In this document: one piece after another, positions 15,953-19,194 of the stretch
Layout of the letters: each line of letters starts with the position of its first letter
Numbering within the stretch: position 1 is the first letter of the stretch
Source of the DNA: a virus
Reading direction: 5' to 3' (one strand)
Length of the DNA stretch: 64,000 bases
IMG/VR virus record: IMGVR_UViG_3300023245_000006
Location: 1 to 64,000 of that record
Translations under genes and position numbers: made by a program
Notes under the pieces: model-generated
What the model was told of the DNA's origin: nothing
Database searches by the model: none
The model's input: the letters and a program-made list of their open reading frames with translations, nothing else

Positions 15953-17575
15953 ATGGACAAAGAAATTATATTAAAAAAATACGGTAGGATTTATAGACTT
16001 TATCCTACAAAGGATCAAATCAAAATTTTCCAAGATTGGCAAAATGGTGCCAGAGCATATGGCAATGAAATTTTATGGAATCAAACAGTTTCGGAAAGAT
16101 TTTTCGATGAAAAGAAACGAGATATCGTCGAACTTAAAATAAAGGCACTTACCGATGTTGGAAAAACCGAAGAAGAAATTAAGGTTCTAAAAGATAAAGA
16201 CTTCTGGGTTACTATTAATAACCAACTCTCGGACCAATATCCGATCAAAGACGCGATTCGTAATGGTTTTAAAGAAATCAGGACAGAATTAACCATAGAT
16301 AAGAAGGGACCAGATCGAGAACTTTTAGATAAGATTATATTAGAAAGATATCCCAATTATGTTGATCTAAAAGATTCATCTAAAAGTTATCTGGGTGCAT
16401 GTGGAGAGGGAGGAATGTATAAGGTCGGAACCGGAAAATATAAACTACCTTCGGCACTGGTCATAGGGATTTTAAAATCTAATGATAAGGCATGGACCAC
16501 GTTCTACGAAATTTGTAAGAACGGAAAAAGTGTTCAACATCTCGTTGGTGCAAAAAAGAAAAAAGCCGCAAAAGGAAAGAGAGTTGATAATTTCGGAAAA
16601 CCCAAGTTTATGAAAAAGTGGGAAATTCCTAATCTTTTATTTTCTACCGGAAATCTGAAAGGACCGAATTTTGAAAAACAACAGGTATTTATTCAAACTT
16701 TGAAGACACCGATCAAGGCAAAATTAGATGTTTATCCCATAGGGATTATCACTTCTTATACAGTTTCAAATATAGGTAAGAAGTGGTTTATTTCTTATGG
16801 TCTAAAGACCAATGTAATAGAACCAGAACATCAACACATCGAATCACAGGTAGGGCTAGATTTGGGTGTAACCAAATTCTTGACCACCACCGATAGTTCC
16901 CAAAAGACCCGAATTTTTGAATTAGACAAAACCTCTAAGAAAAGACTGGCGATTTTGAAAAATCGGGTGAAGATGATCCAGACGATTATTTCGAGATTAG
17001 AACGAGCCGAACCGATGAACTATATAGAAATCAACTGGAAACTAAAAATGTCCGACAAGACAAATCCAGATTATAAACATTTCCAGAGACATAGTAATAA
17101 TTGGTTTAGATCAAATCAAAAACTGGTTGAAACGAAATATAAAATCAATGAAATTTTGAAAAATTTTAGACATCATGTTTCTAATGTGATCACCGATAAA
17201 TATGGAACCATCGGGATAGACAATCTACAAATTTCTAACATGACCAAATCCGGTAAAGGAACCAAAGATGAACATGGTAAAAATGTTAAACAAAAGGCAG
17301 GTCTGAATAGGTCGATCTTGGAACAGGGTTGGGGAATTTTTAATAACCAATTGAAATATAAGGCATCATGGAGAGGTGCAAAGGTTATCGAAATCGATCC
17401 TAAATACACTTCCCAGACATGTCCCGACTGTGGACACGTTTCCAGAGACAATAGAAAGACACAGGCAAAGTTCGAATGCATTGATTGTGGACATAGTGCC
17501 AATGCCGATGTGGTAGGATCACAAAATAATTTGAAAAAGATTAATAAAAAGGTTGCAATACCTGAGACTTTGTAG
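15953..17575 (+). CDS. CRISPR-associated TnpB-derived compact Cas12-like (type V) effector, 540 aa
   Basis: N-terminal YRLYPTKDQ, RuvC-I VGLDLG (D303), RuvC-II IGIDNL (D423 where E is usual), KAGLNRSILEQGW, YTSQTCPDCG...FECIDCG Zn finger, RuvC-III NADVVG (D519); adjacent tracrRNA candidate and CRISPR array. Confidence 0.88.
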   Translation: MDKEIILKKYGRIYRLYPTKDQIKIFQDWQNGARAYGNEILWNQTVSERFFDEKKRDIVELKIKALTDVGKTEEEIKVLKDKDFWVTINNQLSDQYPIKDAIRNGFKEIRTELTIDKKGPDRELLDKIILERYPNYVDLKDSSKSYLGACGEGGMYKVGTGKYKLPSALVIGILKSNDKAWTTFYEICKNGKSVQHLVGAKKKKAAKGKRVDNFGKPKFMKKWEIPNLLFSTGNLKGPNFEKQQVFIQTLKTPIKAKLDVYPIGIITSYTVSNIGKKWFISYGLKTNVIEPEHQHIESQVGLDLGVTKFLTTTDSSQKTRIFELDKTSKKRLAILKNRVKMIQTIISRLERAEPMNYIEINWKLKMSDKTNPDYKHFQRHSNNWFRSNQKLVETKYKINEILKNFRHHVSNVITDKYGTIGIDNLQISNMTKSGKGTKDEHGKNVKQKAGLNRSILEQGWGIFNNQLKYKASWRGAKVIEIDPKYTSQTCPDCGHVSRDNRKTQAKFECIDCGHSANADVVGSQNNLKKINKKVAIPETL

Positions 17576-17581
17576 TAATAT
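17553..17581 (+). promoter_or_regulatory. Sigma70-like promoter for the tracrRNA candidate
   Basis: TTGCAA-N17-TAATAT overlapping the effector stop codon. Confidence 0.55.
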
Positions 17582-17587
17582 ACAAAT

Positions 17588-17780
17588 ATGTCGATGCTCA
17601 ATCGATCAAGGCGTTCGACAAAGGTAAAACTTTGTGAGCCATTAGGGTAAAACCTATTAGGACCAGAACGAAGTGGGAAGGTAACAACCCACATCTACCG
17701 AGAACGGTAGAATCATATTCAAAAGATACTGCGAACCTCTGAGGTTCTAAAAGGCCAAAGAGGTTCGCAGTTTTCTTTAT
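17588..17780 (+). ncRNA. Putative tracrRNA (omegaRNA-derived scaffold)
   Basis: Anti-repeats CTCAATC (17597-17603) and AATCATATTCA (17711-17721) are complementary to the repeat 3' half; several hairpins; terminator at the 3' end. Confidence 0.72.
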
Positions 17781-17781
17781 T
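17728..17781 (+). terminator. Rho-independent terminator ending the tracrRNA candidate
   Basis: 13-bp inverted repeat ACTGCGAACCTCT/AGAGGTTCGCAGT followed by TTTCTTTATT. Confidence 0.7.
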
Positions 17782-17902
17782 TACTACAATTCAACGATTT
17801 ATAACGAAAACATGAAAGAAAAAAATGAAAATTGCAAAAATCTACAGGTTAGCGAAAATGAGAATGCAACCCATTACAAGGCAATAGATTGTAATGGGTG
17901 CC
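17782..17902 (+). promoter_or_regulatory. CRISPR leader
   Basis: A-rich; 11-bp inverted repeat ACCCATTACAA/TTGTAATGGGT (17869-17899) 3 bp before repeat 1. Confidence 0.65.
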
Positions 17903-18467
17903 CTAACAATAGAGTTTAGAGAATGAATATGATTGAGAGCTTCTCACCGGCTTTCTCCCCAAATGCTTTCCGACTAACAATAGAGTTTAGAGAATGAATA
18001 TGATTGAGAGTCATCGCCTTGAAGATACTAACAAAAGAGTTTAGAGAATGAATATGAATGAGAGCTTATCACACCAAGTCTTGGTGGACGGTCGGCGACT
18101 AACAATAGAGTTTAGAGAATGAATATGAATGAGAGCAGAGCGGGTGGCAGATCAGGCCGCAGATATGACTAACAATAGAGTTTAGAGAATGAATATGATT
18201 GAGAGGTATTGCCAGTTCGGGCAACAGCCCTTGTTTAACCTAACAATAGAGTTTAGAAAATGAATATGATTGAGAGTCATCGCCTTCAAGATGCTAACAA
18301 TAGAGTTTAGAAAATGAATATGATTGAGAGGAGGCATCGACAATCCAAATCAATACACTGCCCTCTAACAATAGAGTTTAGAGAATGAATATGATTGAGA
18401 GAACGGCCCTTAGTAGATTGACCGTGGTGACTAACAATAGAGTTTAGAAAATGAATATGATTGAGAG
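17903..18467 (+). CRISPR. CRISPR array: 9 repeats of 37 bp (CTAACAATAGAGTTTAGAGAATGAATATGATTGAGAG), 8 spacers of 34, 17, 34, 33, 34, 17, 34 and 29 bp
   Basis: Repeats start at 17903, 17974, 18028, 18099, 18169, 18240, 18294, 18365 and 18431 with 0-2 substitutions; 3' end ATTGAGAG resembles the common ATTGAAAN end. Confidence 0.97.
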
Positions 18468-18477
18468 TAGCTAAAAT

Positions 18478-19194
18478 ATGAAAAAAAATAAAACATGGAC
18501 CAAAAAAGATGAGAAATTTCTGATAGATAATTATCGGATTAATGGTCTAAAATACTGCATGAATCACCTGAAAAGATCCGCACCATCTATCGTTAACCGA
18601 TCATTTTTACTAAACCTACAAAAAAAACATAAAGATAATCATGGCAGACCTTCCATACCGATAACCCTAAAATATATAGATGGAACAATAAAAACTTTCC
18701 CGAGTCGGAAAATCTGTTCCAAAGAAACCGGAATAAGACTAACAGAGTTCTCACTACTTTTAAAAAATTGTAACCGAAGTATAAATGGTTGGTATAATCC
18801 GGTCAAATTAGAAACCCCTATATACCTATATGATCCCGATGATAATATACATGCGGTTGATCATATATTAGAGTTCTGTTTAGAACATGGTCTCGAACCC
18901 AATATCATTGTAAGAATGATAAAAGGAACGGTTTTTTATTATAAAGGGTTCAGAAAGATCGAAACACCAAAAAAACCAAAAAATCTTAAAAGATGGGATA
19001 TTTTAATATCTCCCGATAAAAAGGAATATATTGTCCATAACATCGCGGCATTTTCTAGAGATATGGGAATCCATAAACAAGGATTCTACAAATTAAAATA
19101 TGATAATAGGTTATATAATAAAGGGTGGTTATGGGCAGATACCGTGCTGAAAGAATATAACAAAGGAAATAAATATGAAACCGTGGAAATCTAG
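18478..19194 (+). CDS. Basic protein with homing-endonuclease-associated DNA-binding modules (NUMOD/IENR-like); no clear nuclease domain
   Basis: WTKKDEKFLIDNY N-terminus; repeated (Y/I)xPD...xxFxxExGL...xKG(W/F) modules. Confidence 0.6.
   Translation: MKKNKTWTKKDEKFLIDNYRINGLKYCMNHLKRSAPSIVNRSFLLNLQKKHKDNHGRPSIPITLKYIDGTIKTFPSRKICSKETGIRLTEFSLLLKNCNRSINGWYNPVKLETPIYLYDPDDNIHAVDHILEFCLEHGLEPNIIVRMIKGTVFYYKGFRKIETPKKPKNLKRWDILISPDKKEYIVHNIAAFSRDMGIHKQGFYKLKYDNRLYNKGWLWADTVLKEYNKGNKYETVEI

Follow-up and report, generated by a model that had tools for sequence, protein, structure and literature searches.

Aspartate at the catalytic RuvC-II glutamate position of a phage-borne, TnpB-derived effector beside a CRISPR array

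Introduction

The stretch of DNA analyzed here, referred to below as the window, comprises 64,000 nucleotides (nt; positions 1 to 64,000 of the IMG/VR virus record IMGVR_UViG_3300023245_000006) and carries a gene for a TnpB-derived effector of 540 amino acids (aa), denoted P0001, that is followed on the same strand by a candidate guide RNA and a CRISPR array. The window is part of a 96.7-kb record, estimated to be 46% complete, of a phage that encodes rIIA, RNA ligases and other T4-type functions and whose nearest relatives infect Vibrio, Pseudomonas and Aeromonas; the same DNA is present in 24 salt-lake metagenome runs collected in 2017-2019. In P0001, the glutamate of the second RuvC motif (RuvC-II), one of the three residues forming the catalytic triad, is replaced by aspartate.

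RNA-guided nucleases have repeatedly become binders, examples of which include Cas12k, Cas12m, TldR and the dCas12f proteins that work with a sigma factor. To our knowledge, how such a transition starts has not been established. Here, the substitution in P0001 is placed on solved structures, compared with the corresponding residue of its relatives, followed through the phage population and considered with respect to what it may mean for DNA cleavage.

Results

The effector and the position of Asp423

Two Pfam families are recognized in P0001, OrfB_IS605 (PF01385) and the Cas12f1-like TNB zinc ribbon (PF07282), the latter at aa 460-525. The protein has the fold of the TnpB/Cas12 superfamily, a RuvC (RNase H-like) domain split by the zinc-ribbon TNB domain, as judged from Pfam, from an AlphaFold2 (AF2) model compared by Foldseek and from the four zinc-binding cysteines (CCCC), and the alignment reveals an N-terminal insertion of about 170 aa beyond the ordinary TnpB layout. 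The residues that are kept comprise D303, D519, T486-S487-Q488, N517-A518, N525 and all four zinc cysteines. In place of the canonical Asp-Glu-Asp triad of the superfamily, P0001 has D303/D423/D519. This triad had been proposed in the original prediction, which was made from the letters of the DNA, and it is borne out by the translation and the alignments, with D303 in VGLDLGV, D519 in NADV and D423 in RuvC-II; the motif range given there, 17201-17236, does span codon 423 and lies 6 nt too far to the left of the true one (Table 1).

Homologues were placed by phmmer searches against solved structures, and relatives were aligned with MAFFT. The top-scoring solved relative is RdCas12n (9j09; E 2e-28), in which E386 faces D423 within a gap-free stretch of the phmmer alignment; the catalytic residues of RdCas12n are given as D287, E386 and D484 (PMC12216341). 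For the ISDra2 TnpB, the phmmer ranges (query 421-525 on chain 276-367) put D423 on E278 and D519 on D361. Because it is aligned with E386 of the former and E278 of the latter, D423 occupies the true catalytic RuvC-II position. The AF2 model, built on 141 sequences, has a mean predicted local distance difference test score (pLDDT) of 79.7 and exceeds 90 in the RuvC core, including the strand 419-423 (pLDDT taken as the mean of 10-residue blocks). D423 ends this strand at its C-terminal end, D303 lies in the strand 299-304, and D519 starts the helix 518-535, so that in the model the predicted arrangement of the three residues is the canonical geometry. In a Foldseek search with the model, structures of TnpB, Cas12p, Cas12f and Cas12m came top, with a probability of 1.00.

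Rarity of aspartate at position 423

Among 268 aligned relatives, column 423 holds Glu in 264 sequences, Asp in three (P0001 counted) and Pro in one, that is, about 99% Glu. The surrounding consensus, xIxIEDLKVxNM, matches the clade norm IVIEDLKVSNM given in the original prediction. The other catalytic columns are similarly constrained, with Asp at column 303 in 242 of the 246 non-gap sequences and at column 519 in 267/268, and the zinc-ribbon cysteine columns (490, 493, 509 and 512) vary not at all or almost not. At non-catalytic acidic columns, Asp and Glu exchange freely (E183/D47 at 439, D188/E23 at 457 and E101/D96 at 499). Since the exchange is conservative and Asp is only one transversion away from Glu, and Asp is nevertheless rare at column 423, it is, by these comparisons, selected against there in ordinary TnpBs.

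The company in which Asp423 is found is of interest in the same respect. Its other two holders, P0155 (405 aa) and P0214 (286 aa), are metagenomic TnpB relatives that both lack the RuvC-I Asp and have GSQ for TSQ; their triads read Ala-Asp-Asp or (missing)-Asp-Asp, and both are probably nuclease-dead derivatives that share the Glu-to-Asp change. The relative with Pro at 423, P0233, has lost all three catalytic residues. A literature search for the Glu-to-Asp change in the RuvC domain of Cas12 proteins returned none.

The adjacent replacement of Asp by Asn at position 424, to which the original prediction had also pointed, is present in P0001 and was rejected as a meaningful change: Asn occurs in 39/268 relatives, canonical ones among them (Lys in 13/268), and is therefore ordinary at this position. 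Of the 36 columns with a conservation of 90% or more, four differ from the consensus in P0001 (R402L, E423D, A434G and A523S); in the other sequences such deviations have a median of 1 and a 90th percentile of 3.

Origin and population stability of the substitution

The closest match to P0001 among 1.84 billion cluster representatives has 41% identity and covers only its C-terminal half. IMG/VR yielded no relative, the JGI metagenome contigs a single TnpB match (36% identity), and ESM Atlas and BFVD generic TnpB-like clusters only; the N-terminal half used as the sole query gave no match. The sole full-length relative found is P0173 (550 aa), encoded on a 1805-bp Logan contig, with 29% identity over aa 10-528, the N-terminal insertion included. 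In a FastTree phylogeny of 223 full-length relatives, it is the sister of P0001 with a support of 0.97, and a profile search with the two proteins retrieved no further full-length relative. P0001 and P0173 form a small, undescribed family. The P0001 lineage seems to be a further case in which a CRISPR array has independently captured a TnpB, here on a phage. The RuvC-II motif of P0173 reads IIVEDLKV, with the canonical Glu. Because the sister keeps Glu, Asp423 is the derived state and Glu the ancestral state of the family.

Logan contigs from four salt-lake runs (X13, X17, X19 and X21; 2017-2019) span nt 17219-17221 without a differing letter. Asp423 is therefore fixed in the phage population and is no sequencing error. 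As explanations of the Asp codon, a mistake in assembly or sequencing and a rare variant confined to one sample are accordingly negligible, since the contigs of the four runs agree at a codon where GAA and GAG were looked for and none was seen, and the exact protein is on record in 14 contigs. Across the gene, the contigs of these runs match the window except that one contig of low depth lacks 1 nt (nt 16517), perhaps through faulty assembly.

The gene is not decaying. That P0001 is nonetheless a decaying or functionless remnant with Glu-to-Asp as drift, or that the array is served by another protein, namely the product of the second TnpB-like gene of this phage (Table 1), is improbable. No ortholog above 41% identity is present among the 1.84 billion representative proteins, the deviations of P0001 at conserved columns are above the usual number, cas1, cas2 and cas4 are absent nearby, and the second TnpB/Cas12f-like open reading frame (ORF) has an intact Glu, all of which would suit such an explanation. 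It is opposed by the intact 540-aa ORF, in which 32/36 highly conserved columns are kept, as are its zinc ribbon and D303/D519, by a sequence unchanged over the 2017-2019 samples, and by the structured RNA with an anti-repeat and the regular array that the gene adjoins; the second ORF is 39 kb off and has no repeats beside it.

Table 1. Features of the effector locus and other genes mentioned in the text (positions in the window)
Feature	Position	Strand	Basis
P0001 gene, TnpB-derived CRISPR-adjacent effector, 540 aa	15953..17575	+	ORF and translation
RuvC-I catalytic Asp codon, D303 (VGLDLGV), intact	16859..16861	+	alignment, model
RuvC-II motif TIGIDNLQISNM, aa 419-430	17207..17242	+	computed position, alignments
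D423 codon GAC, at the catalytic Glu position	17219..17221	+	codon read, alignments
CxxC...CxxC zinc ribbon of the TNB domain (C490, C493, C509, C512), intact	17420..17488	+	alignment, Pfam
RuvC-III catalytic Asp codon, D519 (NAD motif), intact	17507..17509	+	alignment, model
Structured intergenic RNA candidate (tracrRNA or omegaRNA-like)	17576..17790	+	complementarity, folding
Anti-repeat within the RNA candidate	17711..17721	+	
Hairpin within the RNA candidate	17721..17778	+	
CRISPR array, nine 37-nt repeats	17903..18467	+	repeat detection
Mini-spacer 2, 17 nt	18011..18027	+	
Mini-spacer 6, 17 nt, mismatched to spacer 2 at positions 11 and 17	18277..18293	+	
ORF of 238 aa, starting 11 nt past the last repeat	18478..19194	+	
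Ribonucleotide reductase-like ORF, 1354 aa	3585..7649	+	Pfam
Second TnpB/Cas12f-like gene, P0269, 461 aa	56957..58342	-	

Guide RNA candidate, array and spacers

The intergenic region 3' of the effector gene contains a structured RNA candidate resembling a trans-activating CRISPR RNA (tracrRNA) or an omegaRNA, the guide RNA of TnpB. It includes an 11-nt anti-repeat that is an exact complement of repeat positions 22-32 and, at 17597-17603, a 7-nt complement of repeat positions 29-35; its minimum free energy is -71.8 kcal/mol over 220 nt, and an inverted repeat (I12) is present. A search of Rfam with this candidate returned no family, only hairpin-level matches to miRNA families, and no RNA runs are listed among the sequencing runs that hold this DNA. 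The array begins 328 nt 3' of the effector gene, and the anti-repeat is complementary to the 3' part of the repeat. The locus thus has the arrangement of type V systems, in which the effector stands beside the array and the guide lies 3' of the repeat. The array is poorly assembled in short-read contigs, and its repeat was not found in IMG/VR.

The spacers are, in order, 34, 17, 34, 33, 34, 17, 34 and 29 nt long, the full spacers of 34 nt being exactly twice the length of the 17-nt mini-spacers. Each mini-spacer belongs to a 91-nt repeat-spacer-repeat block (17974-18064 and 18240-18330), and the two blocks share 85/91 identities, with mismatches in repeat and spacer alike. More plausibly than by two acquisitions, the pair would have come about when part of the array was duplicated internally and the copies then drifted apart. 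The original prediction had considered the mini-spacers a fit for silencing. This argument is weak, as guides of 17 nt are within the ordinary working range of TnpB and Cas12m: the natural guide of TnpB is about 16 nt (PMC10705468) and the heteroduplex of Cas12m2 is 17 base pairs (PMC10442227).

With a GC content of 52% (47-61% for the long ones) compared to 35% for the effector gene, 30% for the repeat and 37% for the window, the spacers derive from foreign DNA of clearly higher GC. Searches for their targets were negative within the following scopes. The whole array had chance-level blastn matches only among 50,697 phage records, no target in the 96.7-kb record of the phage itself, and only repeat-derived chance matches in five Gammaproteobacteria genomes and 401 genomes from the order that includes Marinobacter gelidimuriae (a set of about 400 Pseudomonadales). 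For spacers 1, 3, 4, 5 and 7, the initial 22 nt had no exact match in IMG/VR, nor had spacer 4 one in GTDB genome contigs. Elsewhere in the phage record, the mini-spacer 17-mer with up to 3 mismatches was found at no place except one chance-level site. The degenerate mini-spacer 17-mer had 79 matches in IMG/VR, which fell in many unrelated contexts and were discarded as noise.

Other genes of the phage

The second TnpB/Cas12f-like protein of this phage, P0269, has a triad that looks intact (GIDIG, VRVERI and NADM) and a TNB zinc ribbon, and its best solved match is OsCas12f (E 4e-16); no repeat array stands beside the gene, and the exact sequence is absent from a collection of 15 billion proteins. 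The 238-aa ORF downstream of the array belongs to no Pfam family and is only weakly similar (E 1.4e-5, aa 169-218) to a PHROG with the annotation HNH endonuclease; it may be a homing-endonuclease-like DNA-binding protein. Near the start of the window, the ribonucleotide reductase-like ORF contains, according to Pfam, an intein and inserted LAGLIDADG homing-endonuclease domains.

Discussion

Possible consequences of Asp423 for DNA cleavage

In the two-metal mechanism of RuvC nucleases, the carboxylate of RuvC-II holds Mg2+ at site B. A single third-position codon change (to GAC) turned this Glu into Asp in P0001 and yielded an Asp-Asp-Asp site, in which the side chain is one methylene shorter and metal B would probably be held poorly, while the D303/D519 pair may still keep one Mg2+ against the displaced strand. 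Cleavage of target DNA would then be strongly lowered or lost, and RNA-guided binding of DNA dependent on a protospacer-adjacent motif would be retained. On this proposal, P0001 would be a working RNA-guided effector of a T4-like salt-lake phage, from an orphan lineage descended from an IS605-type TnpB, and, like Cas12m, would chiefly form a roadblock on its targets or silence them, or else be a nickase or a slow nuclease.

An attenuated or binding-only P0001 is the likelier reading, which we hold with about even confidence. It is favored by the strong selection against Asp at column 423, by the loss of the RuvC-I Asp in the other proteins with Asp423, and by the structure of Cas12m2. In the structure solved for this protein by cryo-electron microscopy (triad His-Asp-Asp), Asp485, which replaces the second Glu, is too distant for Mg2+ B; Mg2+ A alone is seen, the site holds the non-target strand, and the protein silences without cutting (PMC10442227). 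Cas12m proteins with His-Asp-Asp (HDD) and Asn-Asp-Asp (NDD) triads bound DNA, and none cleaved it (PMC11013384). In E. coli RuvC, E66D is one of two substitutions that give a catalytically deficient, junction-binding protein (PMC5222578). The suggestion of the original prediction that P0001 may silence instead of cutting is partly supported, in that D423 lies at the catalytic site, the column is 99% Glu and Cas12m2 provides a precedent; weakened cleavage and a silencing role are what we infer from these facts.

Several points weigh against this reading, most of them in favor of a fully competent Asp-Asp-Asp site. In that case, P0001 would be an ordinary DNA-cutting type V effector with a near-neutral substitution, in which Asp holds metal B, perhaps by way of backbone shifts, E480/D482 or Mn2+; we regard this as a genuine possibility, toward which we nevertheless do not lean. 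Asp423 retains a carboxylate, and every other feature of the catalytic site is intact; the retained D303, D519, TSQ and NAD suit catalysis as well as Mg-mediated binding. All-Asp sites can work in RuvC-like, two-metal enzymes: the nuclease of the large terminase of phage G20c cuts with D294/D347/D429, and its D347 holds metal B, aided by loop movement (PMC5389553). Alternative catalytic arrangements are common in TnpBs, those with a rearranged RuvC-II using an alternative Glu (PMC10691335), and the study that described TldR left out single-residue variants, many of which are falsely called inactive (PMC10705468). Cas12m proteins of the Asp-Glu-Asp (DED) type do not cut either, and the conversion of HDD to DED restored no cutting (PMC10442227, PMC11013384), from which it follows that the composition of the triad predicts activity imperfectly in both directions. 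The 33-34 nt spacers are typical for interference arrays, and mini-spacers of 17 nt, given the guide lengths of TnpB and Cas12m2, do not by themselves point to binding without cutting. As no target of any spacer was found, the spacers give no hint as to silencing versus cutting. Finally, for a protein without a close ortholog, Asp423 may be either a conserved residue or the recent fixation of a mildly harmful change.

A possible substitute for the missing Glu was also considered. In the AF2 model, E480 (in the strand 477-481) and D482 lie on or just past the neighboring strand beta5, and, by sequence, no other acidic residues near the site are unusual for the lineage. Each is also seen in relatives with Glu423 (E in 20-21/267 and D in 54-55/267), and position 480 takes A, K, L, E and R, the pattern of an exposed position, so E480/D482 do not have the look of a dedicated compensation for D423. 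This speaks against a fully active nuclease, as do the near absence of Asp at column 423 in the 267 relatives, one mutation off and in spite of the free exchange elsewhere, the concomitant loss of the RuvC-I Asp in the other Asp423 proteins, and the distance of Asp from metal B in Cas12m2 (PMC10442227).

Going beyond an attenuated or binding-only protein, one could picture P0001 as a phage-borne, independently evolved Asp-Asp-Asp type V effector part-way from nuclease to binder, which has lost efficient cutting by one Glu-to-Asp change and with which the phage silences, in a programmable way, DNA of its host or of rivals, maybe with a guide of about 17 nt. The targets would then be DNA of apparently about 52% GC, compared to 37% for the phage. 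This we offer tentatively, as a rather doubtful proposal.

With a minimal Glu-to-Asp step, the rest of the site intact and a sister that bears Glu, P0001 would provide a clean natural test of the nuclease-to-binder transition, and its comparison could reveal the effect of a single residue on metal B, cleavage and binding. With its 540 aa, it would also offer CRISPR interference or base editing a compact scaffold that is probably monomeric. If it cuts normally, Asp-Asp-Asp would be shown to work as a RuvC triad among Cas12 proteins, which bears on pipelines that call "dead" effectors from sequence alone.

Comparison with known systems

By sequence (35-41% identity, C-terminal half) and by fold, P0001 is nearest to the TnpBs of IS200/IS605 elements (ISDra2, 8h1j/8exa; ISFba1, 8iaz), with which it shares the RuvC-I/II/III layout, TSQ, NAD, the zinc ribbon and a guide scaffold, a candidate in the case of P0001, just 3' of the gene. 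These TnpBs, however, have Glu at RuvC-II, are about 400 aa long and use one omegaRNA guide at the transposon end, whereas P0001 has an N-terminal insertion and a multi-spacer array and lacks tnpA.

Cas12n (type V-N, formerly V-U4) is similar in size, RdCas12n (9j09/9udi) being a 540-aa protein like P0001, and both have a TnpB-like core and an expanded recognition (REC) region. The two proteins have in common a long Gly/Lys-rich loop past RuvC-II (GKNVxQKxGLNR) and the CCCC zinc ribbon, and the array and tracrRNA-type guide of RdCas12n (PMC12216341) have their counterparts in the array and tracrRNA candidate of P0001. Yet RdCas12n has the canonical D287/E386/D484 and cuts DNA (PMC12216341), while P0001 has Asp at the position of E386, is phage-borne and has no adaptation genes nearby. 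Ordinary TnpBs of 390-410 aa match P0001 far better (E ~1e-50) than Cas12n does (2e-28), and the tree of relatives, which is one without Cas12n sequences, groups P0001 with none but the orphan P0173. P0001 resembles a TnpB captured on its own more than a member of V-N.

The Cas12m proteins (type V-M; MmCas12m2, 8hhl, and GoCas12m, 8pm4) resemble P0001 in being small CRISPR effectors of TnpB descent whose RuvC is non-canonical (HDD, NDD, HEK and others in Cas12m), and Foldseek gives a structural match of P0001 to Cas12m. Cas12m forms with HDD and NDD have the same Glu-to-Asp change in RuvC-II but have His or Asn for the RuvC-I Asp, which P0001 keeps; Asp-Asp-Asp is not among the combinations listed for Cas12m clades (PMC10442227). 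The sequence likeness to V-M is confined to a match with E 1.8e-5 to UnCas12m4a in the RuvC/TNB region, and Cas12m works with crRNA (CRISPR RNA) alone, in contrast to the anti-repeat-bearing RNA candidate of P0001. The TldRs are TnpB-derived, RNA-guided DNA-binding repressors, many of them on phages (PMC10705468), and P0001 is likewise TnpB-derived and phage-borne. They have lost at least two RuvC residues, are often truncated at the C-terminus, rely on one guide alongside and are associated with a regulated gene (PMC10705468); in P0001 the change is a single, conservative one, the C-terminus is complete and the array has several spacers. P0001 thus belongs neither to type V-M nor to the TldRs.

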